Part shown: positions 14,719-59,435 of the stretch, one piece after another
Numbering within the stretch: position 1 is the first letter of the stretch
Layout of the letters: each line of letters begins with the position of its first letter
DNA from: an uncultured Phycisphaerales bacterium
Lineage (GTDB): Bacteria > Planctomycetota > Phycisphaerae > Sedimentisphaerales > Anaerobacaceae
Reading direction: 5' to 3'
Assembly (NCBI GenBank): GCA_963718665.1
Contig: OY970359.1
Location: forward strand, 1,856,001-1,920,000
Length of the DNA: 64,000 nucleotides
Program-made: the position numbers and the translations under genes
Notes under the pieces: generated by a model
Databases searched by the model: none
What the model was told of the DNA's origin: nothing
Seen by the model: the letters and a program-made list of their open reading frames with translations, nothing else

Positions 14719-16865
14719 TTTGCGATGACAGTAGAATGATAAAACGCTGTGTATATCACATATTAATTCTCTCAATGTTTTTTGTCCCCCCCGTTTTGTC
14801 CGCGGATAATTTGTATGACGGGTTTAAGAATCCGCCTATGTCCGTCAGGCCGATTATTCACTGGAACTGGGATGCCAATAGCCCGGGCAAGCAGGAAACA
14901 ATAAGCCGGCTTGAGGCATTCAAAAAAGCGGGCTTTGGCGGCGTTGAAATTTCCATTCTTGAAGATGTAAACGTGCAAATGTTGAAGTTTGCCGCGGACG
15001 CCGCGAAACAACGGGGAATGATTGTGGATTTGTCGCTTGGCTCGACACTGGGCGGCTCATTTATCTCGCCCGCCGAGCAGGGCCGGCAAATCGCAATAAG
15101 CAAAAAGAAGTTCACCGGGCCGACAAATTCTGTTGTGAACGTAAATGATTTAATTAAGGTTACTGACCCGAATTACAAGCTTGTTTTTCTGCGTCTGATT
15201 CGAGCGGAAGCGTCGAGTTTTTTGCCGGGCGAAGAACTAATCGGGAAAATCAAGCAGGATGGCACAGTTGTCATCGATATTAATGACGCCAACACCTATA
15301 CCCTTTACGCGGGCGTTTTGCAATCAGGGGCAGGCGCCACAGGCGATCCGGTTCTCGACGTGCTCAATAAGAATGCCGTAGAAAAATATTTCAACAACAT
15401 CTCCGCCAAACTTGGCCCTGTTTTTGGCAGCAAACTCGGGAATTCGATCCATGCGATTGTATGTTCTCCTGCCGAACCTGGCTTCGCAAACTGGACAGGC
15501 AATTTTCCGCAGCAGTTTATTAAGCGGTACGGATACGACGTACTTCCGTATTTGCCTGTTATTCTCGACACTGATATTCGCGCTGCCAGAACACGTTTTT
15601 ACGATACTATTCGCCGCGTACGTTATGATTTTTACTCGGCCATCATCGGGATGTATCACGAATACTTTACCGCGGCCTTTAAGGATTTTTGTCGCGATAA
15701 TGGTGCTCTGTCCCGCATTCCGGCGGGTTCCGTTAATATTCTCGACAGTTGCTCAGTGCCGCTCGATATATTTCAGGGAGATATACCAGGCACTGGCGCC
15801 AATATGAGATATCGAACCTGGGATAAGATAGTTTCCTCGGCTGCGCATCTTGCCGACAAGTCCCTCGTAGTCGGCGAGTCAACGGTCAGCGATTCAGAAA
15901 ATATTGAATCACTGAAGATAAACGACGACATGGCATTTGTTGCAGGGGACAATCAATCCATTCTGGCAGGGGTTTCCTTGCCCGGCGAGCACAATCCTGT
16001 GTGGCCGTATATCGGAAGCTGGACCGAACGCAACGCGAGATTGTCTTATTTATTCCAAAATGCCCGCCACCAGGCCCGGATTGCCATTTTCCTTCCGGCC
16101 GCCGACCTCTGGAGTGATTGCGGACCTTCTGAGACCAGGATGGCCGATTATATATGGTATCTGTTCCCTCTTTGGCAGGCCCTCAGTCAGAACGGTTATA
16201 CGGTTGATTTCATCAGCGATAAAATCGTCTCACAGGTAACTTTCGATGACGGCAAACTACACTTCGGCTCGCAGACCTACGAAGCCGTTATCGTCCCCGA
16301 TTTATTCTCAATAGAAGATTTTCTTGCTGCCAGGAATCTGCGTTTCTTTAGCGCAAAAGGCGGCAAAATCGTCTTCATAGGCCGAGAACCGCTGACCGGC
16401 ACCGGCTTCAGAAACCTCCTTCAACGAAGTGTTGCCGTCGATCTTACGATGCGTCATCTCAAAGAGAATGACCCAAACCGGGTTTTGTTCATTCAAGCCC
16501 CGGACAAAGACAAGGATAATCTGCTGTCCTGGACATCTGATATGATGAAAAAAATCGGCGTATTGCCAGCCGTCAGGATTTCTCCGCCGAGCGATAAGCT
16601 TCTTTTCGTCCATTACCTTGCCGAAGGCAGAGATATATTCTTTTTTGCCAATACCGATAACGTTGCCCCCGTATCTTTCCGCGCGGATTTCAATACCGCC
16701 GGCAAAACACCCTGGGTCTGGAATCCTGATACCGGCAAGCGCGACAAATTTACACATAGCGACAAGTCGGGCGCTTTGAATATCAGCATCAAGCCGGGGG
16801 ATTCGCTGTTGCTGGTTTTTGAACCGGATACTAAAACAAAACCTGCCAAACCAAAAAATAATTAG
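14715..16865 (+). CDS. Secreted glycoside hydrolase family 106-like protein
   Basis: FKNPPMSVRP..W.W, KAGFGGVEI, NWT..F...F.KRYGYD..PYLP, VRYDF, PWVWNPDTG. Confidence 0.75.
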   Translation: MICDDSRMIKRCVYHILILSMFFVPPVLSADNLYDGFKNPPMSVRPIIHWNWDANSPGKQETISRLEAFKKAGFGGVEISILEDVNVQMLKFAADAAKQRGMIVDLSLGSTLGGSFISPAEQGRQIAISKKKFTGPTNSVVNVNDLIKVTDPNYKLVFLRLIRAEASSFLPGEELIGKIKQDGTVVIDINDANTYTLYAGVLQSGAGATGDPVLDVLNKNAVEKYFNNISAKLGPVFGSKLGNSIHAIVCSPAEPGFANWTGNFPQQFIKRYGYDVLPYLPVILDTDIRAARTRFYDTIRRVRYDFYSAIIGMYHEYFTAAFKDFCRDNGALSRIPAGSVNILDSCSVPLDIFQGDIPGTGANMRYRTWDKIVSSAAHLADKSLVVGESTVSDSENIESLKINDDMAFVAGDNQSILAGVSLPGEHNPVWPYIGSWTERNARLSYLFQNARHQARIAIFLPAADLWSDCGPSETRMADYIWYLFPLWQALSQNGYTVDFISDKIVSQVTFDDGKLHFGSQTYEAVIVPDLFSIEDFLAARNLRFFSAKGGKIVFIGREPLTGTGFRNLLQRSVAVDLTMRHLKENDPNRVLFIQAPDKDKDNLLSWTSDMMKKIGVLPAVRISPPSDKLLFVHYLAEGRDIFFFANTDNVAPVSFRADFNTAGKTPWVWNPDTGKRDKFTHSDKSGALNISIKPGDSLLLVFEPDTKTKPAKPKNN

Positions 16866-27985: not shown

Positions 27986-28002
27986 ATCGAATTACCCGCC
28001 GG

Positions 28003-29262
28003 TTATGTGCCTTCGCCGAAGTCGGCGAGGTATTTGACCTGCTCAGGCGTCAGCTTGTCAATCGAGATACCCATCGATTTGAGTTTCAATGTGCAGACGA
28101 TATTTTCAATCTCGACTGGAACATTATAAACGGCGGCGGTCAGCGACTTGGCGTTTTTGATAACGTATTCGGCCTCTAACGCCTGCGTTGCGAAGCTCAT
28201 ATCCATAACCGAGGCGGGGTGACCTTTGGCGGCTGCGAGGTTAATCAGCCGGCCTTGACCGAGCAGATGTATGCGGTTGCCGTTCTTAAGAATGTATTCA
28301 TCGACGTGCTCTCGAACGCCTTTGTTTACTTTTTTGCTTAGTTTCGTCAGGGCAGGTATGTCGATTTCGACGTTGAAGTGGCCCGAGTTAGCGACGACAG
28401 CCCGGTCTTTCATAACGCGGAAATGCTCGCCGCGTATTACGTTTTTATTGCCTGTCAGTGTCAGGAATAAATCGCCTATTTTCGCGGCTTGCTGCATAGG
28501 CATAACGTCGAAGCCGTCCATTGAGGCCTCGATTGCCTTTATGGGGTCTATTTCGGTAACGATGACGATTGCGCCCATACCTTTGCATCGCATCGCAAAG
28601 CCCCGTCCGCACCAGCCATAACCGACGACCACGACTTTCTTACCTGCTATTAAGAGGTCGGTGGCTCGAATCACGCCATCGACGGTTGATTGCCCTGTCC
28701 CATAGCGGTTATCGAACAGATGTTTGCTTGCCGCGTCGTTTACCGCGATGACGGGGAATTTCAGTTTGCCGGATTTTTCGAGTGCGCGAAGCCGGATAAC
28801 GCCCGTTGTTGTTTCTTCCATACTGGCGATTATTCTTGGTGCGTCGGCAGTGCGTGATGTGTGCAGCTCTGTAACGAGGTCTGCGCCGTCATCGAAAGTA
28901 ATAACCGGCTTGTGGTCGAGGGCGGCGTGAATATGTTTGTAGTATGTTTTACGGTCTTCACCGCAGATTGCGAAAACGGGTATCCCAAAATCCTTAACAA
29001 GAGAGGCGGCGACGTCATCCTGGGTGCTGAGCGGATTCGATGCGCACAAAACCAGATTTGCGCCTGCTGCCTTGAGGGTCCGGGCAAGATTGGCGGTCTC
29101 GGCGGTTACGTGAAGACAGGCAGAAACGTTTTTGCCGGCCAACGGTTTCTGCTTTGCGAATCTTTCGCGTATCGATGCCAGAACCGGCATATCATTGTCC
29201 GCCCACAGTATGCGTTTTTTGCCTGCTACGGCAAGCGACATATTGGCTACATCTGATTTCAT
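28003..29262 (-). CDS. ahcY: Adenosylhomocysteinase
   Basis: SNPLSTQD, EETTTG, KHLFDNRYGTGQS, GHPASVMDMSF. Confidence 0.98.
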   Translation of the reverse strand: MKSDVANMSLAVAGKKRILWADNDMPVLASIRERFAKQKPLAGKNVSACLHVTAETANLARTLKAAGANLVLCASNPLSTQDDVAASLVKDFGIPVFAICGEDRKTYYKHIHAALDHKPVITFDDGADLVTELHTSRTADAPRIIASMEETTTGVIRLRALEKSGKLKFPVIAVNDAASKHLFDNRYGTGQSTVDGVIRATDLLIAGKKVVVVGYGWCGRGFAMRCKGMGAIVIVTEIDPIKAIEASMDGFDVMPMQQAAKIGDLFLTLTGNKNVIRGEHFRVMKDRAVVANSGHFNVEIDIPALTKLSKKVNKGVREHVDEYILKNGNRIHLLGQGRLINLAAAKGHPASVMDMSFATQALEAEYVIKNAKSLTAAVYNVPVEIENIVCTLKLKSMGISIDKLTPEQVKYLADFGEGT

Positions 29263-29290
29263 TCGGTTTTCCTTTCAAGTAAAAGCACGA

Positions 29291-29319
29291 ATTATACACA
29301 TCAGGCCTCTGATTTTCAA
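29291..29319 (-). promoter_or_regulatory. Sigma70-type promoter of ahcY
   Basis: TTGAAA-N17-TATAAT on the minus strand. Confidence 0.7.
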
Positions 29320-29353
29320 GCTAAAACGTTGGCTGATTGCGTTCCAGCCGGGC

Positions 29354-29538
29354 TAATTTTCGCCGGCAGGCAAATCTGTTATATAGTATAATTGCCGCTG
29401 GAATGGGTGAGCACGGACGCCAGCCTGTCATCATCTTCAGGCGGAAATTCATATACCCTGATTGTTAGACCTTCGATGCCAGCTTCGTTGCTATCGGTAA
29501 CTGTTCCGCTGATTGAACCGCAATAATCGGGTACCTGT
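29354..29538 (-). pseudogene. Fragment of a carboxypeptidase-regulatory-like (prealbumin-fold) domain gene
   Basis: Minus strand reads GSISGTVTDSNEAGIEGLTIRVY...THSSGNYTI*, then after a frameshift ITDLPAGEN*. Confidence 0.6.
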
Positions 29539-29602
29539 CAAATAAACCAGAAGGGACGTAACAGGTAAACTTTCGTTCCTGAGACGTTAAAGATATGACA
29601 AA

Positions 29603-29803
29603 ATGGGCGATACAGGACTCGAACACACCCCATTAGAGCAGTCAAAAACCCTGATTTCAGCAAGTGGCGGCGCAGAATCCGACGCGCGTAATGCGCCGAA
29701 CACCCTTCAAGACCCTGATTTGGCGTTGGTGGTCGAACAGTGGCCGAACCTGCCGTAGCATATCAAAGCAGCAATCAAAGCATTAGTTAAAATTCAATTT
29801 TAA
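29603..29803 (+). pseudogene. att-associated small ORF with internal stop
   Basis: MGDTGLEHTPLEQSK...GGAESDA...DPDLALVVEQWPNLP*HIKAAIKALVKIQF*. Followed by a truncated MTISEKQLEAKRT* at 29815 with an AAGGAG RBS. Confidence 0.55.
29604..29624 (-). repeat. att-like direct repeat of the tRNA-Val 3' end
   Basis: TGGGCGATACAGGACTCGAAC vs TGGGCGATACAGGGTTCGAAC at 39512-39532 (13 bp exact, 19/21 overall). Confidence 0.85.
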
Positions 29804-30298
29804 GGAGATACCCAATGACCATATCTGAAAAGCAGTTAGAAGCTAAACGCACTTGAACAAAGAATGGAGCGGGCACTATCGATTAGCGGGGAATTGCTGG
29901 GATTGTAGACCGGAAGCTGGTTGCCAGAGTAATTCTTATGCCGGGGCAGCACAGGGAATATTTTTGTTGCAATGTCGCCAGTTAAAAACGCGCGCACGCG
30001 CGCGATAAAGCGTCCGAAAACTCGTTTTTGAAGCGAAAACGCGTTTTCCGAGTCCATAAAAAAGGGGATTGTTTTCGGGTTTTTTGGGGGGAATTGTAAG
30101 CAATATCTTAGGTAGAATTATAAGTGCGGCAAGTAGTCATTGGAAATCCGATTTTGAATTCGGCTTTTGCGGAGCCGAATAGACACTGGAAGTTTGGCGA
30201 GCAGGGGATAACAAACGAAGTCGTGAAATCACAGCGGGCAAGTTCGTGCTAATCCGTAGCAAAAAAACCTTCGTATTTCTCTGTGATGTTTTAGTTGA

Positions 30299-30613
30299 TT
30301 AGTGGGATTGTTGATGTTCAGGCGATATATCTTCGTTGCTGACAAGAGTCAAGCCAACCGGATCGAATGGTTCCTGTGTCTGCCCGATATGGACTATGTT
30401 TTCTGCTTTAACGCTCACAACATTACCTTTTAGGCCTTTTTCATCTTCCCAGACGTAGTATTGGCCACAACTACTCTTGTCACTGGCCGGGATATAAAAA
30501 AGAGGGCAGCAGACCTTCGTGCTTGCATTACGGCCATTTTCACTGCGGTGTTTAATGAGAATCTTTTTCCTGCCTTTGATCGCCTGAATAAAAATATCAT
30601 GGTCACGGTGCAT
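30299..30613 (-). CDS. Small stand-alone WYL-like domain protein
   Basis: FIQAIKGRKKILIKH...TKVCCP...YYVW...NIVHIGQTQEPFDP follows the WYL layout (AI.....V...Y / R...P / I......T.E.F). Confidence 0.6.
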   Translation of the reverse strand: MHRDHDIFIQAIKGRKKILIKHRSENGRNASTKVCCPLFYIPASDKSSCGQYYVWEDEKGLKGNVVSVKAENIVHIGQTQEPFDPVGLTLVSNEDISPEHQQSH

Positions 30614-31016
30614 ATAATCTCCTGATTACTTTATTATTGTCGGAGGCGCAAATCCGAAATAGCTTATTGCGCACCCAGCAAATTAATCGGCTTGATGTGC
30701 CGGTTTCGCAGGCGACGAGATGCTCGGCTTTTTTATAAAGGTATAGTGCCCGACAAACACCATTTCTTTCTGTTTTGCTTATATTGCCGTCCATCCCGCA
30801 CGCATTGATAAAATAATCAGCAACCGCTTTGGCAACTTCCCCTGAAATCGTTTCGATGTATGCAAACTTGTGATTTTGTACCTTATGAAGGCGGGAAACT
30901 TCCGCGATGGGAGCGATGGGGTTATCAGCCAACCCTATGAACCAATCCTCATATTCGCCACCCCCTTGGCGGATATAGGTTTCCATCTGTTCAATGATGT
31001 ATTTCTGGTTACCCAC
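30603..31016 (-). CDS. Small protein with degenerate GIY-YIG-like fold
   Basis: GGEYEDWFIGLADNP...LHKV...AKAVADYF...GMDG...LYLYKK resembles the W-Y-V-G-I...P..RL..H family. GTG start; overlaps the next gene. Confidence 0.55.
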   Translation of the reverse strand: MGNQKYIIEQMETYIRQGGGEYEDWFIGLADNPIAPIAEVSRLHKVQNHKFAYIETISGEVAKAVADYFINACGMDGNISKTERNGVCRALYLYKKAEHLVACETGTSSRLICWVRNKLFRICASDNNKVIRRLYAP

Positions 31017-31107
31017 TGCCGTATTCGTCTATAGTTTTCTCTGAACGAGCCGCTTACCAGTCATTTGGCATATTAAGCCGCTGCTAATGCGGCCTGCCCT
31101 ACTGTTA

Positions 31108-31136
31108 AAGGCGACTGACTGCATAAAATGTTGACG
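31108..31136 (-). promoter_or_regulatory. ECF-type promoter copy A (GIY-YIG-like/mini-WYL operon)
   Basis: CGTCAACATTT-TATGCAGTCAGT-CGCCTT. Confidence 0.8.
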
Positions 31137-31197
31137 AAAAATTGCTTTTCAGGGGAAATTCATGCTGAATGGCTTCGCGCATTTGCGTCTTCGTGGT

Positions 31198-31236
31198 AAT
31201 AAAACTGGGGCAAAGAGGTTTTGTTCCCTTTGCCCC
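31198..31236 (-). terminator. Intrinsic terminator
   Basis: GGGGCAAAG-GGAACAAAACCT-CTTTGCCCC-AGTTTTATT on the minus strand. Confidence 0.7.
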
Positions 31237-31371
31237 ATTTCCAGCAGATCTGCTGGTGTGGAAGCTTCTGCTTAGAACACCCTTTTCACCATCCGAGGAC
31301 GCAGAAGGAAAGGAGAACCATCGTTCTACGCCCCGGTCGGTCTTGCGCAAGCAATCCCTAGCAAAAAACTA
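31198..31371 (-). ncRNA. Candidate ~175-nt small RNA
   Basis: Lies between promoter copy B and a terminator. Contains UUCUCCUUUCCUU and the palindrome CCAGCAGATCTGCTGG. No convincing ORF. Confidence 0.5.
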
Positions 31372-31377
31372 TTATTT

Positions 31378-31406
31378 AAGGCGTCTCAAGCCGCAAAATG
31401 TTGACG
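31378..31406 (-). promoter_or_regulatory. ECF-type promoter copy B (candidate sRNA)
   Basis: CGTCAACATTT-TGCGGCTTGAGA-CGCCTT. Confidence 0.8.
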
Positions 31407-31456
31407 GTTTTAATCCCAAAAACACTTGTTATTTTTACGAGATAACTGCGTCAGCC

Positions 31457-32455
31457 TTATTGTGAATCTACTATTCTCGATGCTATTTGAACAATCCTTT
31501 GTCTTAATGCCTTAGGCGCAAGGACCTCCACCTGGTCACCATAGCCTAAAATCCACCATGTTATCTCATTAAGCCCATCCACACGGAATTTCAGTACCAC
31601 CGAGCCATCATCCTCAAAAGAGGCGGTCTGTGTTTCATGCCATCGGACTTCAGCCACTTCCGCAGCGATTCGCGGGCAGAATCTCAATTCGACCTCGTAG
31701 ATTTGGCCTTCTCGCAATAATGACCAGGCATACCCAAAATACTCGCGAAGGTCGAATTTCTCATCTTCCACAAAATATCTGTCTAAAGGACTCAACTGTG
31801 TGATATGATTCAACTCGAAAGTATGCACCGCCTTGTGAAAACTCGATTCTCCGATTACATGCCAGGTGTGCGAGGAATATACCAGGTAATAAGGATTTAA
31901 GTCCGTTGTGACAGACCTTTGTTCGACAGGCAAATAGCAATGAATGGCCAAAACCCGCTTTACTTGAATAGCTTCCAGAACCTGCATAAATGTTTTATCC
32001 AACAGGTCCATACTGGCTTTAGGGGCAGGCCTAATTGAGATAAATCGAAACGATTCGTCGCAAAAATGTCTTACTTCCCGTCTCAGGCAATTCTCAATTT
32101 TAAGGGATAACAGCCGGGCAGGATAAGTAAAAGGAAGCTGTATATTGTGGCTCGCCTCGTGAAGCAGTAACAGCAAGCTGAATGCTTCCTCTTTGGACAG
32201 AGCAGGTGTTGGAAGAGGTGATTGAAGGTCTAAAGTATAACAGTGGCGCCTTGTGTTGAAACGACAAGGCAAACCCGCCCCTTGTAGCTCTTTCAGGTCT
32301 CTATATACAGTGCGACGGCTTTTTCCCAGTATCTCGGTTAATTCCGAAATTGCATAGCCCCTCCGGGATTGCAACGCTGTCAATAACTGCATTATTCTGC
32401 TGGTTCTGCTGTTTTTCATACGCCCTTTTGTTTTGATGCTCGGTTTATATGCCAT
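31457..32455 (-). CDS. HTH-WYL-WCX transcriptional regulator (PafC/DriD-like)
   Basis: ELTEILGKSRRTVYRDLKEL HTH; LNPYYLVYSSHTWHVIG...FELNHI WYL; EITWWILGYGDQVEVLAP..LR WCX. Confidence 0.93.
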   Translation of the reverse strand: MAYKPSIKTKGRMKNSRTSRIMQLLTALQSRRGYAISELTEILGKSRRTVYRDLKELQGAGLPCRFNTRRHCYTLDLQSPLPTPALSKEEAFSLLLLLHEASHNIQLPFTYPARLLSLKIENCLRREVRHFCDESFRFISIRPAPKASMDLLDKTFMQVLEAIQVKRVLAIHCYLPVEQRSVTTDLNPYYLVYSSHTWHVIGESSFHKAVHTFELNHITQLSPLDRYFVEDEKFDLREYFGYAWSLLREGQIYEVELRFCPRIAAEVAEVRWHETQTASFEDDGSVVLKFRVDGLNEITWWILGYGDQVEVLAPKALRQRIVQIASRIVDSQ

Positions 32456-32489
32456 ATTAGATGCTTGCTCATCGGTATCACCTTTTTAT

Positions 32490-32519
32490 AAGGCGTTTGG
32501 AAACAGCTAAAGGTTGATT
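32490..32519 (-). promoter_or_regulatory. ECF-type promoter copy D, variant (WYL regulator)
   Basis: AATCAACCTTT-N13-CGCCTT, about 35 bp upstream of the WYL start. Confidence 0.65.
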
Positions 32520-32548
32520 GTTTTTTGAGGCCATATCGCGTTTTTTGC

Positions 32549-32578
32549 TTGATTTTAGTAAACAAAATGTGCTATAAT
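32549..32578 (+). promoter_or_regulatory. Sigma70-type promoter of the dockerin-like gene
   Basis: TTGATT-N18-TATAAT with extended TGn. Confidence 0.55.
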
Positions 32579-32693
32579 GCCTGACGTTTAGACGGATAGA
32601 TGATGACAAGGGAGTAAGCAGACCGTTCACCTTCGGAGGGGAAGGTCGTATCTATTGATGCTGGGTTAAGGTTCTAAAAACTCATTAAAGGGA

Positions 32694-33398
32694 GTGTGGG
32701 CTGTGAAAAGATTGATTTTTTTCATACTGCTTCTGGTTGCAACAGTGCCAGCAGCGCACGCCGAAGTATTCACAAGAGTTTGTATGGCGGATGGCGATAC
32801 ACCGCTTGAGCTTGCCGACCCCTGTATTCCATTCGTTTACCGCCCAATTATGGTTGGAACGCACCTTACTATAGTTATTAGTTCTGATACGAGTGATTAC
32901 TGGGACGGCGGCGAACTGGCTCTTTGGGATGCAAACCAGAATTACGGTGTTTTGTCCGGAGGTTCACAATTACCGGCTGCCGGCGATATGGCCATAGTAT
33001 GGCCTGTTGTAGAAGCTGAGGAAGTGGACGGGCAGTGGCACGATGCCAATGGTTTTCAGTTTTCCGGGTCCCCGGACTCTACTGCCCTAATCGGCGACTG
33101 GTTTATAGTTGATTATAATGCCATTAGCGTGGGTACCTGTTCTGTTATCTTTTACAACTACGACGTGGATTGGAATAACCCGTTATACGCAATGTCTTTC
33201 ACTCATGTCGTAACACGCGATTTTAATGGTGATGGAATAGTCAACTTTGAGGATTTTGCGGTGCTTGGCTTGAATTGGCGAAGAACCGGCTGTTCTGAAC
33301 CGGATAATTGCTCGGGAACCGACCTTGATGCCGATGGGTATGTAGGTATCAGCGACTTAATGCAATTTGCCGAATACTGGCTGGAAAAGACCAGATAA
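32694..33398 (+). CDS. Secreted protein with C-terminal dockerin-like (paired EF-hand) module
   Basis: Signal peptide ending AHA. DFNGDGIVNFEDF...W and DLDADGYVGISDL...F...WL. Confidence 0.85.
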   Translation: MWAVKRLIFFILLLVATVPAAHAEVFTRVCMADGDTPLELADPCIPFVYRPIMVGTHLTIVISSDTSDYWDGGELALWDANQNYGVLSGGSQLPAAGDMAIVWPVVEAEEVDGQWHDANGFQFSGSPDSTALIGDWFIVDYNAISVGTCSVIFYNYDVDWNNPLYAMSFTHVVTRDFNGDGIVNFEDFAVLGLNWRRTGCSEPDNCSGTDLDADGYVGISDLMQFAEYWLEKTR

Positions 33399-33456
33399 TC
33401 AGCAACCTCGATTTAACCCTTGTGAGACCATTAAACCATAATAATTTTCTCTCAAT

Positions 33457-33473
33457 GGGTCAGGTTATGTCAC
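33457..33473. promoter_or_regulatory. Candidate WYL-regulator operator
   Basis: GGGTCAGGTTATGTCAC, 13/17 identical to GTGACAGGTTTTGACAC at 38799. Consensus GTGACA-N5-TGTCAC. Confidence 0.45.
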
Positions 33474-33488
33474 AGGAGGGCAGAAAAT

Positions 33489-33517
33489 CGTCAACATTTC
33501 CATTTTCACAACGCCTT
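33489..33517 (+). promoter_or_regulatory. ECF-type promoter copy C (C39 polyprotein)
   Basis: CGTCAACATTT-CCATTTTCACAA-CGCCTT. Confidence 0.8.
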
Positions 33518-33598
33518 CAATTTATGGGTGTTGCTGTAAACGCCCGGTGATGATTGGTTAAGGTGGTTTTTGTGATAACGCAGTAGATACGAGAGGAG

Positions 33599-35410
33599 AT
33601 GTGTTATGAACACACGAATATTTTAGGAATTATCGTCATAGTGCTGCTTGGCAGCGGAATCGCAGTTGCAGACAGACCCTTAGAGCGTGCGGAGCTTCTG
33701 CAAATCTTTGAACAATTAACCGCTCAACCCCGCAAGACCTGGATTGCTGCGGGCACAATTGAGGCGTCACATCAGGAATATGGTGCATCAGCCGTTACCG
33801 ACGAAAATGAGATTAACCGGCAAATCGCCGCGGAGATTCAGCGGTATCGGAATGAGTCAAACAAAAGAGAGCTTACCGAAGAGATGCAGAAAATGAAACT
33901 TGACGCGATGCCTTTTAACATTCGCCACAAGTTATCCAACGAATACACAATGAATTCTACGGAACAGGTAAAATTTGACAGTAAGCGGTTCTACTGGGAG
34001 ATTGACGTTGATTCAAGGTCTGATTCGGTAAAACCGGGCAGGGAGTTAGCCGGCAATTTCATGACTCAGCAATTCGACCTCGGCGGAAATCAAAAACGTA
34101 TATTTGCCTGGGATGGCGATAAGTACACCACGTATTTCCTGCCTGCCAACAATGCTATTGTCGATGCAGGGGGAAATAGCCCGCATTCTGTAAACGGGCC
34201 TTTAACCGCAGGGGTGGTGCCGTGGGGATACGGTCGCTACACATACAGTAATCTTTGTGCCGTTGAGTCATCGGGCATTGAATCGACCGCCAACGGTGAG
34301 ACACAAATAGTTTTGACGCTCAAAGAAGCCGACGGCAGCGAAAGTAACTTTACACTGGACTCCGCCAAAAACTATGCCTTAATAAATTGTTTAATAGGAA
34401 AACCGGATGGCTCGACAATTTCAAGACAGTATTCGGATTATGCATTTATCGCAGGCGGCTGGGTCCCTAAAACCATCCTGATTGAACGATTTGAAGCCGA
34501 CTCGAGTCGGCTGAAAGCCCGCGACTTGTGGAATCTGACTACTATAGACGATAATGTTCCAGAGGCAAACGCTTTTGATGTCCCTTATGGGTCGGATGCG
34601 CTGGTTGAGTATTATTCCGATGGGAGCACTAAGCCGGCAATGTACCGGCAATCAAACGCTGCTGATACAAACCAGCTCCTGACGAAACGTTTGGCGATAG
34701 TCAAATCAAATGGAGCGAATACGCGAAATTGCGCAACAATAGCGATAAGATACGTCGCGTCGGAATTCGGTGTTACAATTTCAGATAAAGATCTTGCATC
34801 CCTCGTTAATCAGACCAGTGGCACTACGAGTATGTACGATATGAAATACTTCCTGCAGGGATTTGGACTATATTGTCGAGCGGTTAAGACAAACATCGAT
34901 ACGCTCAAAAATCTAAACGGCTGCAAGGCAATTTTATATTTCCCAGGGAGGAACCATTACGTTGTCGTGGACCGCATTGATGACCAATATGTCTGGATAA
35001 CAGACCTTTCGTCGGCCAAATTCTATTACCGCACGGAAATCAGCTTTTTTGATATGGACTGGACAGACGGGGCGGCTTTACTTGTTTCGAAACAGCCGAT
35101 TCAGGGCGATTTTAATGAAATCGGCAGCGACCAGCAGGCAGGTATAACCGGCGGCGACGGTTACGCCTGCACATATCTAATTCAGCAATACAATGTCATC
35201 TTTTGCAGCTATGTTGCCGGTTTGTGTGGAGGTAATTACTATGTATATTACACACGCTATGGATGCCAAGCTGACGATAGCGGCGGCAGTTGCTCCAGCA
35301 CAAAAATGGTCAGATGTATGTCAACCCCCTGCATTAACGACCCTGATATCCTTGAGGCCTGCAATGTGACCGGCGTGTGGACATGTTATTATATGATGGC
35401 ATGTATGTAA
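33599..35410 (+). CDS. Secreted polyprotein: N-terminal beta-rich domain + C39-like peptidase + double-Gly leader + 10-Cys C-terminal peptide
   Basis: AGAGGAG RBS and signal peptide. RNCATIAI (Cys), GTTSMYDM, RNHYVVV (His), VWITD (Asp). FNEIGSDQQAGITGG followed by 84 aa with 10 Cys. Confidence 0.85.
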   Translation: MCYEHTNILGIIVIVLLGSGIAVADRPLERAELLQIFEQLTAQPRKTWIAAGTIEASHQEYGASAVTDENEINRQIAAEIQRYRNESNKRELTEEMQKMKLDAMPFNIRHKLSNEYTMNSTEQVKFDSKRFYWEIDVDSRSDSVKPGRELAGNFMTQQFDLGGNQKRIFAWDGDKYTTYFLPANNAIVDAGGNSPHSVNGPLTAGVVPWGYGRYTYSNLCAVESSGIESTANGETQIVLTLKEADGSESNFTLDSAKNYALINCLIGKPDGSTISRQYSDYAFIAGGWVPKTILIERFEADSSRLKARDLWNLTTIDDNVPEANAFDVPYGSDALVEYYSDGSTKPAMYRQSNAADTNQLLTKRLAIVKSNGANTRNCATIAIRYVASEFGVTISDKDLASLVNQTSGTTSMYDMKYFLQGFGLYCRAVKTNIDTLKNLNGCKAILYFPGRNHYVVVDRIDDQYVWITDLSSAKFYYRTEISFFDMDWTDGAALLVSKQPIQGDFNEIGSDQQAGITGGDGYACTYLIQQYNVIFCSYVAGLCGGNYYVYYTRYGCQADDSGGSCSSTKMVRCMSTPCINDPDILEACNVTGVWTCYYMMACM

Positions 35411-35529
35411 TTAGTTGTGACTTTATTGTGGTATTGCCACGTTAAGGTGGTACTGTAGTATACAGGTTATCATACATTGTTGCTCTGACGCACTTGACTT
35501 TCTTTGACGCAGGCCATACAGTGTTGGCT

Positions 35530-36354
35530 ATGCGGCGATTTGGGCTAGTCCTGATTGAATTGATTTTAGTAATAGGAATTATTGCTGTTCTCTTCGCGTT
35601 TTTGGTCCCTTCTCTTCAGAGGTCCCGGCTTCAGGCAAAAGCGGCTGTCTGTATGTCCAATATCAGACAGTTGAATACGGCCTTGTCAATGTACGTTACT
35701 GACACCGGCAAATTCCCTTACGGATTTTATGACCTGCCTCCACCTAATCCACCTATTCCGCCTCCGTCCGGTGGTTATGCTGGTTTATCTCAATATGACA
35801 GAAGGGGGTGGTGGTGGTTTAACTATCTTGAGGACATTTATAAGAAAAATATGGCTGGGAAGACCGTGCTTCAATGCCCTTCCAAACAGCTACAACAGAC
35901 AGCGCTAAAAAATGATATTCTTTGCGGAAACTACGGCGTTAATCTGTTGATTTGCAGAATGTCGAGTGGCGGCGGGGACCAGAATGAAATAGGTAATCCG
36001 ATAGGGATTTCGGAAGTTTTACGGCCGGGGCAGACATTGCTCATAGTCGATAGCGGCTACGCAATCATAAGCTGGCAGCACGCGGCTGATATTCTACCTC
36101 AGGGGATAACGCTTGGCACCATACCATTAGAAAATACTGCTTACGTTCCGGGCCTGTCGATAAATTGCCAAAGACAACTTTTGCCGGAACAGGAAACAGA
36201 TGCTTTATATGGGAGACATCCCCAGATGACGGTTAACGTTGGATTTGTTGATGGTCACGTAGCCCGCATCAAAGCGGAAGATTTGCTCGTCAAAAAAAAG
36301 CCCGACGGCACCTACGAAAATCGGTTTCCGCTATGGGCGCCATGTTCTCAATAG
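35530..36354 (+). CDS. Prepilin-type N-terminal / H-X9-DG (DUF1559-like) protein
   Basis: MRRFGLVLIELILVIGIIAVL..LVPSL, CMSNIRQL, CPS, RHPQMTVNVGFVDGHV. Confidence 0.9.
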   Translation: MRRFGLVLIELILVIGIIAVLFAFLVPSLQRSRLQAKAAVCMSNIRQLNTALSMYVTDTGKFPYGFYDLPPPNPPIPPPSGGYAGLSQYDRRGWWWFNYLEDIYKKNMAGKTVLQCPSKQLQQTALKNDILCGNYGVNLLICRMSSGGGDQNEIGNPIGISEVLRPGQTLLIVDSGYAIISWQHAADILPQGITLGTIPLENTAYVPGLSINCQRQLLPEQETDALYGRHPQMTVNVGFVDGHVARIKAEDLLVKKKPDGTYENRFPLWAPCSQ

Positions 36355-36361
36355 CTGCAGA

Positions 36362-38044
36362 TTAGAACGACATAGCTTCTGCTTTTGCAAGTATTTCTTT
36401 GTCGCCGGGGTATTCGATAATCATAATCGATTCGAGGACCGGCTGAAAATCAGATGCTGATTGTTTAAACCACTGAACTTTTTGTGGCAGATTAGTAGAG
36501 TTATCCATAAAAATACGCCAACTCTTTTGCGTCGTTGAACCATCATAGGCCTTCTCGGCCCAACTCAGTTCATATACTTTAGTATTGCTGGTTTTAACGG
36601 TAAGCTCGGAATTCGTTATCTCAGACCACCTTGCGTCCGCGGGGATGTCGGCGGATTTGTCGAATGGCATTATGCCTAATGAACCGTAAATCATATTCCT
36701 TAAAGCGACAAGATTATCACTGCTCAATGAAATCTGCTTAATTGCGCCGGTGCCCAAATCTTTATTCTTTTTCACTCGCTCGAAAGCGCTCCAAAGTGTA
36801 AATTCATTTTTTGTCTTAATAATGTAAATCTCAGAACTTCTGGATACCCAAACCTCCTGCACGGGTTTTTGATTATCGGCAACAAAGCTGGAAATATGGA
36901 TATTCTTAACCACATCGATGGCCCTGTAAATCTGTTCAATGCCAAGACCTTTTGCGGTATGAACGTTAATAAACAGGCCTACTGCCACCATTATCACCGC
37001 TGCAACCGGAATCGCCACTTTCAATAGCGGTCTAATACTCTTTGATGCAGATTTGAGTTTTACGGTTGGTTCAAACTTCTCAGAATGTGGTTGCTCCCGG
37101 CTGTCCAAATTGGCCATTTCCACCCTTACAGGGAAACCAGCGTATATGCTTTCTGTCTCAACCTTGGCAGTTGTGTCTATGTGGAAGACCGTCGCAACGC
37201 CGGATTCGGGCCTGTCGGCAATGTCATAAATCGTCTTGTGCAATTGCTGGATTTTGTCAAGGCACTCGGCGCAGCAGACAATGTGTGTGGTTAAAGATTT
37301 GCGGAATTTGGCATATTCGTCGCTTGTCGGGTCTATGCCGTATGGAATACAATAATCAAAGACATCAATTGCTCCTACGGATGAACATGGGAAGATACTC
37401 TTCTGTGTTTCATTATCGCTATGCAGTATTTTTGTTTGTTCCAGGATTATCTGACGGAATTTGTACAGTTCCTGCCGACATTTAGGACATAAAGATAAAT
37501 GCCTTAAAGTTTTTGCATCTGTTCGGCCAAAGGCCATCGCAACAACAGTTGGGATTGCCTCACGAGCTGTGGTGCAATCTGTTTCGTCGGTATCAAGTTC
37601 ATCTGCAAACAATTCACTGAGGGTTATAAGCTGTTTGTGGCTGAGGCCCAGATTTTGCAGCTTTTTGGAATCCTCTTTACATTGGTCGCAGTTATCGATA
37701 TGGGCCGTTATGGGCGTAGGCATCCTGATTTGCGTCGTCGGAGCCAAAAGATTCGGCAAAAAAGGCCTTACATCAGCGCAATTAACGTGTTTACCCACAA
37801 ACGAAAAGTGCAGCTTGAGTATGGCGGTAGTCGCCATCTGACGTTGTACCATGTGTGTTTGTGGATGCTCTTTGCATTCGGCCAGCATTGCTTCAAGCCG
37901 GCTCATTTGCTCACGACAGTAAAGACATCCCATGATGTGGTCGATGACTTCGCTGGGAACAGACCGTTCGGTCTCATCACGTAAAAAGTCAAAGTAGTGC
38001 CGCTCGGCTTCCGCACAAAATTTGTTATAATTGGGTGCTATCAT
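36362..38044 (-). CDS. Membrane-anchored anti-sigma factor with four tandem HxxxCxxC zinc-finger motifs and a periplasmic domain
   Basis: HIMGCLYC, HIDNCDQC, HLSLCPKC, HIVCCAEC; TM VAIPVAAVIMVAVGLFI; overlaps the ECF gene; GAGG RBS before ATG 38044. Confidence 0.85.
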   Translation of the reverse strand: MIAPNYNKFCAEAERHYFDFLRDETERSVPSEVIDHIMGCLYCREQMSRLEAMLAECKEHPQTHMVQRQMATTAILKLHFSFVGKHVNCADVRPFLPNLLAPTTQIRMPTPITAHIDNCDQCKEDSKKLQNLGLSHKQLITLSELFADELDTDETDCTTAREAIPTVVAMAFGRTDAKTLRHLSLCPKCRQELYKFRQIILEQTKILHSDNETQKSIFPCSSVGAIDVFDYCIPYGIDPTSDEYAKFRKSLTTHIVCCAECLDKIQQLHKTIYDIADRPESGVATVFHIDTTAKVETESIYAGFPVRVEMANLDSREQPHSEKFEPTVKLKSASKSIRPLLKVAIPVAAVIMVAVGLFINVHTAKGLGIEQIYRAIDVVKNIHISSFVADNQKPVQEVWVSRSSEIYIIKTKNEFTLWSAFERVKKNKDLGTGAIKQISLSSDNLVALRNMIYGSLGIMPFDKSADIPADARWSEITNSELTVKTSNTKVYELSWAEKAYDGSTTQKSWRIFMDNSTNLPQKVQWFKQSASDFQPVLESIMIIEYPGDKEILAKAEAMSF

Positions 38045-38624
38045 CTTCAACCTCTTGTTCAATTGCCAGAAATTTTTTAACCTTCCTAAGCCCGGTGGAA
38101 ATATATCTTACTACAGAACGATCATCAATACTCATTCTGTCAGCCGCTTCTTTTATGGATAAATCATCACAGTATCTTGATGCAATAGCTTTAAATTCAT
38201 TCTTCGTTACCCGATTTCTGATTAATTCTATCATCCGATCTGCCAGCTCTTTCTCTATTAAGGCGTCTTCGGGCAGCCGATTGTTGACGGTTATTTTGTT
38301 ATAATTGGCACATCTGTGTGTCATTTCCTGGTATTTTTTGAGGTGTCGGATATGGTCTGTTGTATCATTGATTATCGCCCTGTAGATATAACCTTTGATG
38401 TCCTGCACTTCCGCCGGGACAGGTCTTGATGCAAGCGAAAGGAAGAAATTATGGAACAAATCTTCGGCCATGCTTTCATCCTTAATTTTGTGGCGAATAA
38501 CAGCGCGGATAAAATCGCCGTGCTCAAAAAAGATTACCGTGGCACGTTGAACGTCGCCTGATACGTCACACCCCTGTTCTATGGTGTTCTTTTCGCTCAC
38601 CTGCGACTCACTCCCAAAAGGCAA
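38025..38624 (-). CDS. ECF sigma factor (start uncertain)
   Basis: AEDLFHNFFLSL, YIYRAIINDTTDHIR (region 2); LSIKEAADRMSIDDRSVVRYISTGLRKVK (region 4). Confidence 0.9.
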   Translation of the reverse strand: MPFGSESQVSEKNTIEQGCDVSGDVQRATVIFFEHGDFIRAVIRHKIKDESMAEDLFHNFFLSLASRPVPAEVQDIKGYIYRAIINDTTDHIRHLKKYQEMTHRCANYNKITVNNRLPEDALIEKELADRMIELIRNRVTKNEFKAIASRYCDDLSIKEAADRMSIDDRSVVRYISTGLRKVKKFLAIEQEVEDDSTQL

Positions 38625-38798
38625 AGAATCCGAATATAAACAGCCATATTACCAAATATGCCTTTTCTTATCAAGGGTAAGGTTTTGGCTAAATCATGCT
38701 GAATGGATTGATATTTGGGTGTGGTGATTAGTTCAATACTGAGTGTAGCTCTTAATATGCCTTGCTGGCTTTAAAAAAATCTCCTTTTTCCTTAGCCA

Positions 38799-38815
38799 GT
38801 GACAGGTTTTGACAC
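38799..38815. promoter_or_regulatory. Candidate WYL-regulator operator upstream of the ECF gene
   Basis: GTGACAGGTTTTGACAC, a near-palindrome. Confidence 0.45.
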
Positions 38816-39511
38816 TCCAGGTGTAAATTTCCTAAGATTTTCGTGCTTTTAGGCGATGTAGAGAATAGGCCTCCTTAGATTTTTGCTCGCTGGGCTTGGA
38901 ATGGGTGGGCTGGGAAAGAGCTTTGTGGGGATGAAGCTTTTCCCGGCCCACTTGGCCTCGTCCTTGCTGTGCCGTGAGTGGTCGTGATGCTCAAACCTGT
39001 AAAATTCGGATAGATAGTCCGATGGCATAAAATCATAAGCCGTTGAAAACATAGAACTTACAAACTCGCAGCCCCTCTGCTTACAAATAATTTAAGGACG
39101 ACAAGGCGGCTTAGATAGGCATAAATTGCTTCTCTTTTTCATTTTCTTAAACTGCTTGCCATTAGGGATGTGTGGATTACTATCACTTTGGTATCAAAAT
39201 CGAAAATACACCTGGAATCGTAAAAGAACTTTTCATAGCATCACAACCTGAGCAGATGTCTGGTTTTTATTACTGCTTGATGATTTGTTTTCGGTCGGTT
39301 TGCCTTTCGGTTGCTACGATGTTCACTTTCGGGGACATATCTATTGTCAACGCGCAATTTGGGTGGGCTACGGGGATTTCTACCAGCAATAATGAAGGCC
39401 CAGAGAATGATGTGCAAAATGCGGAATCGTGTTGCACGGCTTCGCACACAGGCGGAGAATCTGCGAAATTCAACACAGAACAACACATTACGACACAATG
39501 CGAAGGGGTAG

Positions 39512-39585
39512 TGGGCGATACAGGGTTCGAACCTGTGACCTCACGGGTGTGATCCGTGCGCTCTAACCAGCTGAGCTAATCGCCC
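39512..39585 (-). tRNA. tRNA-Val(CAC)
   Basis: GGGCGAT/ATCGCCC acceptor, GCTC/GAGC D stem, CACGG-ATCACAC-CCGTG anticodon arm, ACAGG-TTCGAAC-CCTGT T arm. CCA not encoded. Confidence 0.96.
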
Positions 39586-39650
39586 TGCACAATCATATTA
39601 GAAACGATTCGGCCTGTTATTGTCAAGTCCAAACGCGGGCATACTTTCGC

Positions 39651-40064
39651 TTACAGACCTTCGTTTGCCAGCAGATTAACGCGTCCAAGCTTGACGCCCT
39701 TAATGCTTATGAGTTTTTCGCCCATTTTGTTTATCTCGCCGACCTTGCCGCGCAGGACTATTACCTCAAGACAATTGTGATGGTCCAGATGAACGTGCAG
39801 AGAAGAAATAGTTTTCAGGACATGCGAATGCTGAAGCTCCGTCAGCCGTTCCATAATCGCGGCTGCGTGATGGTCATACACCAGGACAACCGCGGCGACC
39901 GCCTCGGCCTTGTCATTTCGCAGCCGATTATCGCTTAACTGCTGCCTTATTAAATCGCGTATTGCTTCCGACCGGCTCTGATAACCCTTCTCGGCAATCA
40001 ACTTGTCGAATGCTCCGAGCAATTCTTTCTCAAGCGACACACCAACTCGCTCTATACCCGCCAT
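39651..40064 (-). CDS. nikR: Nickel-responsive regulator NikR
   Basis: RVGVSL, SRSEAIRDLIR, YDHH, HVHLDHHNCLEV. Confidence 0.95.
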   Translation of the reverse strand: MAGIERVGVSLEKELLGAFDKLIAEKGYQSRSEAIRDLIRQQLSDNRLRNDKAEAVAAVVLVYDHHAAAIMERLTELQHSHVLKTISSLHVHLDHHNCLEVIVLRGKVGEINKMGEKLISIKGVKLGRVNLLANEGL

Positions 40065-40100
40065 TACATTTCTCCTGCAATACCCGTTGAGGTTCGCAAA

Positions 40101-41900
40101 CTAATCCCTGCTTGTTACATAAACTGCCTGCTCGGCGAAAAGATTCGGCACAAACTTCACCTGGCTGCCCCGCGTTTCGCTCAGCGCTATTTTCTTTTCA
40201 ACCTTTACGCCGAGCTTGTTGCAAAATCTGTCAAAATCCTTAATAGTGAAGAAGTGCACGTTCGGCGAATTATACCATTCGAAAGGCAGGTTGCCCGTTA
40301 CCGGCGCCTTGCCCAGAATCGCCATTTGTAATCTGCACCGCCAGTGCGCGAAATTCGGGAAGCTGACAATCACCTTTTTGCCGACCCGCAGCATTTCGAG
40401 AAGCGCCTTCTCGGGATTTTTCAGCGTCTGCACCGTCTGCGATAATATCACATAATCGAAGCTCTTGTCGGCATAATAATCAAGCCCCTGCTCGACATCC
40501 TGCTGGATAACAGGTAATCCCCGGCAGACACAATCCAGCACAAATTCCTGGCCAAGCTCGACGCCTTCGCCTTTTATGTGTTTGTCCCGGACAAGATTTG
40601 CAAGCAGTTCCCCGCTGCCACAGCCAACGTCAAGCACGCTGCTTCCCGGCTCTATGAGGGATTCAATGAGGTCATAATCGACACGCGCCCTTTGCGGCTG
40701 GTCAAAAACATCCAGCCCTTGTCCTCGCTTCGCGATACAGGAACATGGTTTGCGATTCTGCGGGTCATAGGTCGCTTTCAGAAAACAGCAGATAAGTTGT
40801 CCAAGTGTGTCAATCTCCAGCAAAAACGCGTCGTGACCATAAGGCGAGGCGATATCGCAGTAGCTGACATCCTTGCGATTCGCGGCAATCGCTTCGGCTA
40901 TCGCCCTCGATTGCGCAGGCGTGAAAAGCCAGTCGCTCGACAAGCTCACGACCAGAAATCGGCTTTTCGCGTTAGCGAACGCCTGTTGCAGTGAGCCGTA
41001 GTCCTTTGTAAGGTCGAAATAATCCGACGCCTTGGTAATGTAAAGGTAACTGTTGGCGTCGAAACGCTCGACGAAGCTCTGCCCCTGATAATCAAGATAC
41101 GTCTCGACGGCGAACTCCGAGGCAAAATCATATTTATAGTCGTCGGCAGTCCGAAGTTTTCTGCCGAATTTATCACGCATACTCTCTTCGGACAAATACG
41201 TAATATGCCCTATCATCCTGGCGATGCCAAGCCCCTGTGCGGGCTGGCCGGTTTCGTGGTATTGCCCGTCGGCAAAATTATGGTCCGCCAGTATCGCGTT
41301 TCGCCCCACCGCGTCAAACGCTATCGATTGTGCGCTTAAATGGCTTGTCGTCGCTATCGGTATCGCTGCTTTGACAAAATCCGGATACGAAATCGTCCAC
41401 TGCAAAACCTGCATCCCGCCTATCGAGCCGCCAATCACGGACAATAATTTTTTTACGCCGAGCTTATCGAGCAGGAGCTTTTGAACCTTCACCATATCTG
41501 TTATTGTGATAATCGGGAAATCAAGCCCGTACGGTTTGCCGGTTTTGGGGTTAATCGAAGATGGCCCAGTTGTTCCGGAACACCCGCCTAAAAAATTCGA
41601 GCAAATCACAAAATATTTATTGGTATCGATACCCTTTCCCGGCCCGACCGTATTATCCCACCAGCCGGGTTTGCGGTCATCAGGACTGTTTAATCCCGCA
41701 ACGTGGGCGTTGCCGCTGAGGGCATGGCAAACCAGGACAACATTATCCCCCGTCGCGTCGGGCTTGCCGTATGTTTCGTATGCCACGTCAATAGGCCCAA
41801 GCGTCTTGCCGCACGCGAGTTCCAGCGGATTATTCTCTTCGACAACCCGTATTATCTGCGTTTTAACTATACCAACCGAGTTTTCCTTCGAGTTTGCCAT
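40101..41900 (-). CDS. metX: Homoserine O-acetyltransferase fused to MetW methyltransferase
   Basis: CHALSG, GGSIGG, GHDAFL. C-terminal LDVGCGSG, ILSQT.Q, VSFPNFAHW (MetW). Confidence 0.95.
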   Translation of the reverse strand: MANSKENSVGIVKTQIIRVVEENNPLELACGKTLGPIDVAYETYGKPDATGDNVVLVCHALSGNAHVAGLNSPDDRKPGWWDNTVGPGKGIDTNKYFVICSNFLGGCSGTTGPSSINPKTGKPYGLDFPIITITDMVKVQKLLLDKLGVKKLLSVIGGSIGGMQVLQWTISYPDFVKAAIPIATTSHLSAQSIAFDAVGRNAILADHNFADGQYHETGQPAQGLGIARMIGHITYLSEESMRDKFGRKLRTADDYKYDFASEFAVETYLDYQGQSFVERFDANSYLYITKASDYFDLTKDYGSLQQAFANAKSRFLVVSLSSDWLFTPAQSRAIAEAIAANRKDVSYCDIASPYGHDAFLLEIDTLGQLICCFLKATYDPQNRKPCSCIAKRGQGLDVFDQPQRARVDYDLIESLIEPGSSVLDVGCGSGELLANLVRDKHIKGEGVELGQEFVLDCVCRGLPVIQQDVEQGLDYYADKSFDYVILSQTVQTLKNPEKALLEMLRVGKKVIVSFPNFAHWRCRLQMAILGKAPVTGNLPFEWYNSPNVHFFTIKDFDRFCNKLGVKVEKKIALSETRGSQVKFVPNLFAEQAVYVTSRD

Positions 41901-59305: not shown

Positions 59306-59435
59306 TCCCAAACTTTCCAAAGCTATATAGCCGTTGAAGCTTCAACTATTAACCTGACGATTTTAGCGAGTGTTTTAGTTTAAAAAAACCATTTTTTTGG
59401 CCGGATTACTTTTTCGGGGTGGATAAACGTCTTTT

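Follow-up and report, generated by a model that had tools for sequence, protein, structure and literature searches.

The stretch analysed here, which we call the window, comprises 64,000 nucleotides (nt) of the genome of an uncultured Phycisphaerales bacterium (assembly GCA_963718665.1, contig OY970359.1, positions 1,856,001 to 1,920,000) and lies within a single contig of 2,610,871 bp with 49.2% GC; below, this contig is C1 and the genome is G000. Within the window, an island of 9,886 bp carries the gene for an extracytoplasmic function (ECF) sigma factor together with several copies of a bipartite DNA motif that are directed into neighbouring transcription units (Table 1). The island is bordered by a tRNA-Val gene and by a direct repeat of its 3' end, has a GC content of 45.2% as against 49.2% for the genome, and is patchily distributed, with an ortholog of its sigma gene in 10 of 23 genomes of the genus; these features together identify it as a tRNA-integrated island. 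We saw no integrase gene among the open reading frames (ORFs) scanned in the island region. A partial tRNA 3' end likewise adjoins the module in a relative, G007 (locus L024, ~15950-16100).

Listed from the repeat towards the tRNA gene, the left part of the island holds two small genes, o104 and o137, read leftward from a motif copy that we call site A; a candidate small RNA, read leftward from site B; and a gene for a WYL-domain regulator, read leftward from site D. In the right part, a gene for a dockerin-tailed protein of 234 amino acids (aa) is read rightward, site C points rightward into genes for a C39-peptidase protein and a DUF1559 pilin-like protein, and a 566-aa protein is encoded leftward, downstream of the ECF sigma gene.

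Table 1. Motif sites, genes and other features of the island, followed by strong motif sites elsewhere on contig C1.
Feature	Position	Strand	Description
Site A	31108..31136	-	CGTCAACATTT-N12-CGCCTT, 28.9 bits; predicted ECF-type promoter of the o137-o104 operon (start 31016, at 92 nt)
Site B	31378..31406	-	Exact motif, 31.4 bits; predicted promoter of the ~170-nt small RNA
Site C	33489..33517	+	Exact motif, 31.4 bits; predicted promoter of the C39-peptidase and pilin-like genes, 82 nt before 33599
Site D	32490..32519	-	Variant AATCAACCTTT-N13-CGCCTT (also written ATCAACCTTT-N13-CGCCTT), 25.5 bits; predicted promoter of the WYL regulator
Site E	38260..38288	-	GTCAACAATC-N12-ACGCCTT within the sigma gene, 25.5 bits; predicted sigma-dependent promoter for the anti-sigma gene
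Weak variant of the preliminary description	39103..39131	-	AAGCAATTTAT-N12-CGCCTT; rejected as a site
ECF sigma factor gene, 199 aa	38025..38624	-	TIGR02937 (sigma70-ECF), 52.8 bits, cut-off 42.9
Sigma-70-like promoter of the sigma gene	38646..38674	-	TTGATA-17-TAATAT
Predicted membrane anti-sigma gene, 566 aa	36362..38062	-	Start overlaps the end of the sigma gene
tRNA-Val(CAC)	39511..39585	-	Island border; matched in Rfam
Direct repeat of the tRNA-Val 3' end (19/22)	29603..29624	-	Other island border; 0/100 shuffles
o137-o104 target operon	30299..31016	-	Two small proteins, 137 and 104 aa, no family; terminator 29989-30004
Candidate small RNA, ~170 nt	31200..31372	-	Invariant 21-nt core; intrinsic terminator 31206-31237
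HTH-WYL-WCX regulator, target gene	31457..32455	-	Domain matches
Dockerin-tailed secreted protein	32694..33398	+	Has a sigma-70-like promoter of its own at 32549-32578; not counted among the ECF-type targets here
C39/pilin-like target operon	33599..36354	+	C39-peptidase protein 33599-35410; DUF1559 pilin-like protein 35494-36354
Chromosomal site	C1:121677	-	Downstream: 201-aa protein of no family
Chromosomal site	C1:361917		Downstream: 740-aa beta-helix/DUF11 protein with a dockerin-like tail as in the 503-aa protein
Chromosomal site	C1:371761		Downstream: 77-aa and 434-aa ORFs
Chromosomal site	C1:461397		Downstream: 503-aa GLUG-repeat secreted protein with a dockerin-like tail
Chromosomal sites	C1:614129 and C1:2227502		Downstream: duplicated 601-aa membrane-anchored protein
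Chromosomal site	C1:1519821		Downstream: PD-(D/E)XK_3 gene, then another GLUG/dockerin homolog
Chromosomal site	C1:2468005		Orphan site next to a transposase; the only ORFs, of 71-72 aa and at 130-171 nt, are doubtful

The motif occurs three times in exact form in the window (sites A, B and C), against 0.00 expected, with no copy in any of 100 dinucleotide-preserving shuffles, and the spacers of the three copies are dissimilar, as are their flanks. The exact form is found four times in the whole genome, the copy outside the window being C1:121677 (-). Between the AAC of the upstream box and the CGCC of the downstream box there are 16 nt at sites A, B, C and C1:121677, and 17 nt at sites D, E and C1:461397. 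ECF promoters typically have AAC in the -35 box and a -10 box that begins with CG, about 16-17 nt apart; the boxes, with their AAC-N16-CGCC geometry and dissimilar spacers, fit this pattern. A preliminary description of this DNA, made from the letters alone, had reported the three exact copies with unrelated spacers, the N13 variant (site D) before the WYL gene, the ECF-type geometry, and the orientation of these intergenic sites into the downstream units. We found all of these as described: sites A to D are intergenic, each is directed into the unit that had been named for it, and site D ends 35 nt before the start of the WYL regulator gene (32455). Site E, which lies inside the sigma gene, was absent from that list.

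We built a two-block weight matrix from seven sites of this genome (A, B, C, D, E, C1:121677 and C1:461397), allowed the gap to vary by one base, and used the genome reversed, not complemented, as the control. At 20 bits or more, the scan returned 15 sites against none in the control, at 18 bits 18 against two, and at 14 bits 47 against 19; matches from 20.6 bits downward are intragenic. Twelve of the top 13 sites lie outside ORFs of at least 150 aa and are directed toward an ORF, whose start is 28-179 nt from the site in 11 of these 12; the thirteenth is the one in the interior of the sigma gene. All six top sites outside the training set (C1:2468005, 1519821, 361917, 371761, 614129 and 2227502) are intergenic. 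Given the excess over the control and the intergenic orientation of the top sites, the motif is rare, oriented and placed as a promoter would be, rather than being common across the genome without orientation bias. Five of the 13 top sites fall within the island, which makes up 0.38% of the genome (binomial P ~1e-9). The earlier idea of a regulon private to the island has to be given up: eight of the 13 are elsewhere in the chromosome, so that there are at least eight comparably good sites beyond the island, most of them preceding genes for secreted proteins with dockerin-like tails.

Some of the chromosomal sites raise the question of whether the copies could be non-functional relics of duplicated DNA, such as the ends of a small mobile element, that resemble a promoter by chance. 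The spacers at C1:361917 and C1:1519821 are similar, also to that at G017:C1:337092, C1:614129 and C1:2227502 lie in an exact duplicate, and one site is beside a transposase. This explanation would lead one to expect longer similarity around all copies, or random orientation to genes, neither of which was seen: the three exact island copies differ in both spacers and flanks, the boxes stay constant while spacers drift at orthologous sites of at least 11 genomes, and 12 of the 13 top sites are intergenic with a bias in orientation. We therefore consider a relic origin highly improbable. The duplicated segments, C1:614129-616063 and C1:2227502-2229436, consist of an identical promoter and 601-aa membrane-anchored protein gene in two genome copies. 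The site beside the transposase (C1:2468005-2468032; locus L034, 5006-5033) is a strong orphan copy, flanked on one side by an insertion sequence (IS)-type transposase gene and on the other by a convergently oriented gene, at its 3' end. We rejected it as the promoter of a gene, for want of a plausible ORF; it is probably a remnant promoter, because the sequence downstream resembles the 5' part of the small RNA described below. Neither the 201-aa protein after C1:121677 nor the targets of 434 and 275 aa could be given a family by Pfam, NCBIfam or PADLOC.

The island sigma passes the curated ECF model, which matches residues 33-186 of its 199 residues; the Pfam matches to regions 2 (r2) and 4 (r4_2) are weak and under their cut-offs. 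None of the 18 region-4 matches of the genome includes a paralogue of it. In all 11 genus loci, a TTGATA-17-TAATAT element is kept ~25-55 nt before the sigma start. The preliminary description had offered a weak motif copy at 39103 as a possible site for the sigma gene itself. The letters are literally there, but we rejected this copy as an autoregulatory site: it lacks the TCAAC core, and scores under 14 bits, and nothing corresponds to it in G017 and G007, the syntenic relatives closest to G000, whose sigma-to-tRNA spacers lack that stretch. What stands before the sigma gene is the conserved sigma-70-like promoter.

We infer that the 566-aa protein encoded directly after the sigma gene is its anti-sigma. 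It has four H-x3-C-x2-C motifs (residues 42, 121, 188 and 260), which precede a single hydrophobic, presumably membrane-spanning segment at ~346-368. The protein has no Pfam family, and the RsrA model matches residues 96-131 with an E-value of 0.006, under its cut-off. The tandem arrangement of the motifs, ~70 residues apart, is unusual for a zinc-type anti-sigma. In G017 (locus L023, 13522-15786), the sigma and anti-sigma orthologs are split into several frames with many stops, through either real decay or assembly indel errors.

In the sigma operon itself, the motif thus lies not 5' of the sigma gene but in it, upstream of the predicted anti-sigma gene. Site E falls in the linker that joins regions 2 and 4, where it encodes V-N-N...D-A-L, and ends 198 nt before the 566-aa gene start. 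Across 10 genus orthologs both boxes are invariant, and seven spacer positions vary. We also aligned 14 homologs, four of which share no more than 36-41% identity with the protein of G000, and asked which codons are kept. In 36 columns the amino acid is invariant and could be encoded by more than one codon; a single codon is kept in only 6 of these, and all three such columns within the boxes (Asn AAC, Ala GCC and Leu TTA) are among those six (Fisher P 0.0028); three of the four distant homologs have ATGCC instead of ACGCC. Site E is therefore under constraint at the nucleotide level, at synonymous positions. Such constraint would be expected if the site were a promoter from which the sigma drives a separate transcript of the anti-sigma gene. 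We predict this function for it.

Conservation within the genus was assessed in 23 congeneric genomes, with 37 genomes of other genera for comparison and a strict motif defined as having at most one mismatch. The strict motif was found in 14 of the 23 congeneric genomes and in one of the 37 others (0-1 matches per genome in the backwards control), and in 11 genomes the sites lie in the same syntenic block, with constant boxes and drifting spacers. Each of the 10 genus genomes with a sigma ortholog (56-83% identity) has 2-5 strict matches. Twelve of the 13 genus genomes lacking a detected ortholog have 0-1; in the thirteenth, G016, the module is on a contig that ends before the sigma gene. Site A is at the corresponding place in all nine genus loci with o137, and site D in all nine with the WYL gene.

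A candidate small RNA, already named in the preliminary description, is predicted to be transcribed sigma-dependently from site B; in the loci examined it occurs in one or two copies per genome. Among 14 aligned copies, the 21-nt core is perfect and the terminator stem shows compensatory changes from G-C to A-U; all copies found have the motif 5'. Five genomes (G002, G008, G014, G015 and G018) have a second copy, downstream of an additional motif site that is oriented divergently relative to the sigma gene. Outside the genus no copy was found at up to four mismatches in the loci examined, and a search of positions 28000-41000 against Rfam, at E-values up to 1, matched the tRNA only, leaving the small RNA with no Rfam family. 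An 81-aa ORF at 31105-31350 was rejected as a protein, since it overlaps the terminator and site A and its conservation is at the nucleotide level, in the 21-nt core and the covarying stem. Between the small-RNA terminator and site A, a stretch of ~300 nt with a GTGACAGATTCTGTCAC hairpin is kept in relatives (L021, 13870-14215; L022, 9745-10027; and others) and mostly gone from G000.

As regards the other genes of the island, Pfam, NCBIfam and PADLOC give no family for o137, o104, o73 or o67. Atlas look-ups for o137 and o104 return only clusters of hypothetical proteins; there are weak leads to GIY-YIG, at rank 24 with 14% of members, and to WYL, with 24% of members. We have not adopted the earlier label of a GIY-YIG-like operon. 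The C39 protein (33599-35410, +) ends in Gly-Gly followed by a cysteine-rich tail of ~85 aa. The sigma-70-like promoter of the dockerin-tailed 234-aa protein reads TTGATT-18-TATAAT, and its gene has a leader of ~115 nt (32579-32693, +) with a hairpin at 32629-32646 and no Rfam match.

The sigma family extends well beyond the genus. Its profile has one match in G000 and finds members in 110 of 201 genomes of the order, in 56 of 97 genera. We compared the neighbourhood of the sigma gene in 20 loci from other genera. In all 20, a homolog of the 566-aa protein and the pilin-like gene are next to the sigma gene, and the C39 gene adjoins the sigma gene in 18 (of the other two, one is cut by the contig end and one lacks C39); the dockerin-tailed gene is present in 17 and the WYL gene in eight. 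From these counts, the sigma, anti-sigma, C39 and pilin-like genes form an old, patchy module that is order-wide and not specific to the island, and that is probably mobile; the C39 protein is predicted to be a conserved core target of the sigma. The earlier proposal that apparently unrelated cargo is tied into one system is partly upheld: the boxes join the C39 operon, WYL gene, small RNA and o137-o104 into a unit that is syntenic in at least 11 genomes, but the core is not an assortment of unrelated island cargo.

Of 18 loci outside the genus, 14 keep a CGC[CT] box upstream of C39, ~100-130 nt from its start, and the pentamer 16-17 nt 5' of this box varies; the remaining four loci, the most distant ones, have no recognisable boxes. 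This -35 pentamer is TCAAC in three loci, TCCAC in three, TCTAC in one, TCAAT in one, TCCGT in one and GAAAA in five. The five GAAAA loci make up one clade of the sigma tree (support 100/98), in which the region-4 helix reads N-N-[TIM]-[AV]-A-W-R-Y instead of N-x-R-[ST]-[VI]-S-R-Y and both boxes of site E are lost. The TCCGT locus, G163, is sister to four loci of its own genus with TCAAC, TCCAC or TCTAC; it has a matching TACGT at the internal site, and its helix reads I-E-T-V-K-R-Y. In two separate lineages, as we read it, the -35 box and the region-4 helix of the sigma thus switched in step. Of the evidence from sequence alone, this is the strongest that the island sigma reads the boxes.

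The co-variation bears on two further explanations. One is that the boxes are ECF-type promoters read by another of the 17 other ECF-like sigma factors of the genome, three more of which are in the window, and that the island borrows that factor. Good copies of the motif do exist outside the island, and others exist in G006, G010, G012, G022 and G023, genomes in which we detected none of the island sigma family. However, none of the 17 other sigma genes has a motif-like AAC-N15-17-CG within 350 nt upstream, the motif count in the genus follows the presence of the island sigma, the copy in the operon of this sigma is under synonymous constraint, and in other genera it is with the region-4 helix of this same sigma that the -35 box changes. 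We regard a borrowed factor as improbable. The three other ECF-like sigma genes in the window are clustered, at ~54478-55023, 56469-57023 and 58760-59320 (-), and have no motif upstream.

The second takes the bipartite motif not as a sigma recognition site but as an operator, bound by a regulator that the module encodes, for instance the HTH-WYL-WCX protein. Such a regulator is encoded in the island and in eight of the 20 distant loci, and the variant 5' of the WYL gene is what autoregulation would give. Yet the motif is neither a repeat nor a palindrome: it comprises two unlike boxes with a fixed AAC-to-CG distance of 16-17 nt, always on the coding strand and 28-198 nt before a start. It is also kept 5' of C39, with no WYL gene nearby, in eight of the 14 motif-bearing loci outside the genus (including L064, L065, L066, L069, L073 and L079), and the changes in the -35 box follow region 4 of the sigma. 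An operator role thus seems quite improbable to us.

The GTCAACATTT-N12-CGCCTT boxes are real and conserved. We conclude, with a probability of roughly 0.78, that they serve as the -35 and -10 boxes of promoters recognised by RNA polymerase containing the island ECF sigma; transcription would start at the boxes and depend on this sigma. The island sigma is by far the best candidate reader because it co-occurs with the motif in the genus, because a conserved motif lies in its own operon, and because the -35 box co-varies with its region 4. The assignment of the boxes to this sigma in the preliminary description is retained on these grounds, without the site at 39103 and without exclusivity to the island.

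Several observations weigh against this conclusion. Seven of the 13 top sites themselves belonged to the training set of the matrix. We see no classical autoregulation of the sigma gene, as its own upstream region has a sigma-70-like promoter and not the motif. The -35 assignments outside the genus were read by eye, anchored on position, and the co-variation amounts to two evolutionary events, a small number; linkage alone cannot separate the sigma from the WYL regulator, because the WYL gene is linked to the same loci in eight of 20. Good matches also occur in genomes with no detected member of the sigma family (two in G006 and one each in G010, G012, G022 and G023), which may be relics of island loss or may be read by another factor. 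Lastly, among sigma-positive genomes compared, only G000 and G008 have the motif before homologs of the 740-aa protein, and only G000 has it before homologs of the 503-aa protein; the comparison is weak, in that each protein belongs to a paralogous family with several copies and the flanks of many loci may stop short of the gene start. The sites outside the island appear on this evidence to be evolutionarily labile.

If the boxes are indeed promoters for the island sigma, the circuit might operate as follows. The sigma gene would be transcribed from its conserved housekeeping-type promoter, and the sigma would be kept inactive by the co-translated membrane anti-sigma with its zinc-finger-like motifs, until an envelope or redox signal freed it. 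The freed sigma would then activate five island units, namely the C39/pilin-like operon, the WYL regulator, the ~170-nt small RNA, the o137-o104 operon and extra anti-sigma, the last of these, made from the promoter within the sigma gene, providing negative feedback. It would also activate ~8 chromosomal promoters, mostly before secreted proteins with dockerin-like tails. A broader proposal, which we put forward tentatively and hold to be possible rather than probable, is that the island is a mobile, self-contained cassette of sigma, anti-sigma and promoters belonging to an order-wide family, in which the region-4 helix and the -35 box switched jointly at least twice (from TCAAC to GAAAA, and to TCCGT) to give orthogonal pairs. 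Such a cassette would recruit host genes for dockerin-tailed proteins and a genus-specific small RNA, with feedback from the promoter in the sigma coding sequence.

Circuits of this type are ordinary, and it is textbook knowledge that an ECF sigma can have linked targets behind a promoter motif that is readable. The classification of Staron from 2009 is said to have defined ECF groups by bioinformatics, each with a group-specific promoter motif and a conserved neighbourhood, and the present family resembles such groups in its conserved neighbourhood (anti-sigma, C39, pilin-like) and lineage-specific -35/-10 motif. It also resembles the zinc-binding anti-sigma (ZAS) pairs SigR/RsrA and RpoE/ChrR, in that the protein encoded directly after the ECF gene has H-x3-C-x2-C near its N-terminus. 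It departs from them in the sub-cut-off RsrA match and in the 566-aa length, four motifs, membrane segment and outside domain of ~200 aa of that protein, whose binding of zinc and sigma is putative.

The closest parallels are with sigma-E of Escherichia coli. As in the sigma-E/RseA pair, the genes for an ECF sigma and a membrane anti-sigma are predicted to share a transcript. PMC2909356, citing Rhodius 2006, describes a promoter that lies between rpoE and rseA, directly before the latter, and depends on sigma-E; the promoter that we predict before the anti-sigma gene would be its counterpart. Similarly, PMC4102768 lists the sigma-E-dependent small RNAs MicA, RybB and MicL among the strongest targets, which a predicted sigma-dependent small RNA would match here, and many of the targets there, as of the predicted targets here, are envelope or secreted proteins. 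By contrast with E. coli, the sigma gene promoter here looks housekeeping-type, the predicted anti-sigma promoter lies in the sigma coding sequence, 198 nt from the anti-sigma gene, and the system is on a tRNA-linked island with a patchy distribution in the order. The 566-aa protein, with its four H-x3-C-x2-C motifs, has no similarity to RseA, and the small RNAs are unrelated in sequence. The part of the Casas-Pastor 2021 ECF supplement consulted (PMC7826278) makes no mention of C39, DUF1559, SBP_bac_10 or WYL, and full-text literature searches (C39, ECF sigma and DUF1559; Planctomycetes ECF promoter motif and anti-sigma) found no description of the module.

What distinguishes the present case is that the regulon is unusually well readable from its DNA, along with a probable promoter within a coding sequence, a predicted dependent small RNA, and apparently matched changes of sigma and -35 box. 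For an uncultured lineage without genetics, the analysis provides a concrete predicted regulon, with one sigma, one predicted anti-sigma, five island promoters and ~8 chromosomal ones. It would give an unusual C39 protease-cargo protein a defined regulatory input, and it predicts a new sigma-dependent small RNA. Across genera, the matched changes in region 4 and the -35 box would constitute a natural specificity series, and may be a source of orthogonal sigma/promoter parts.

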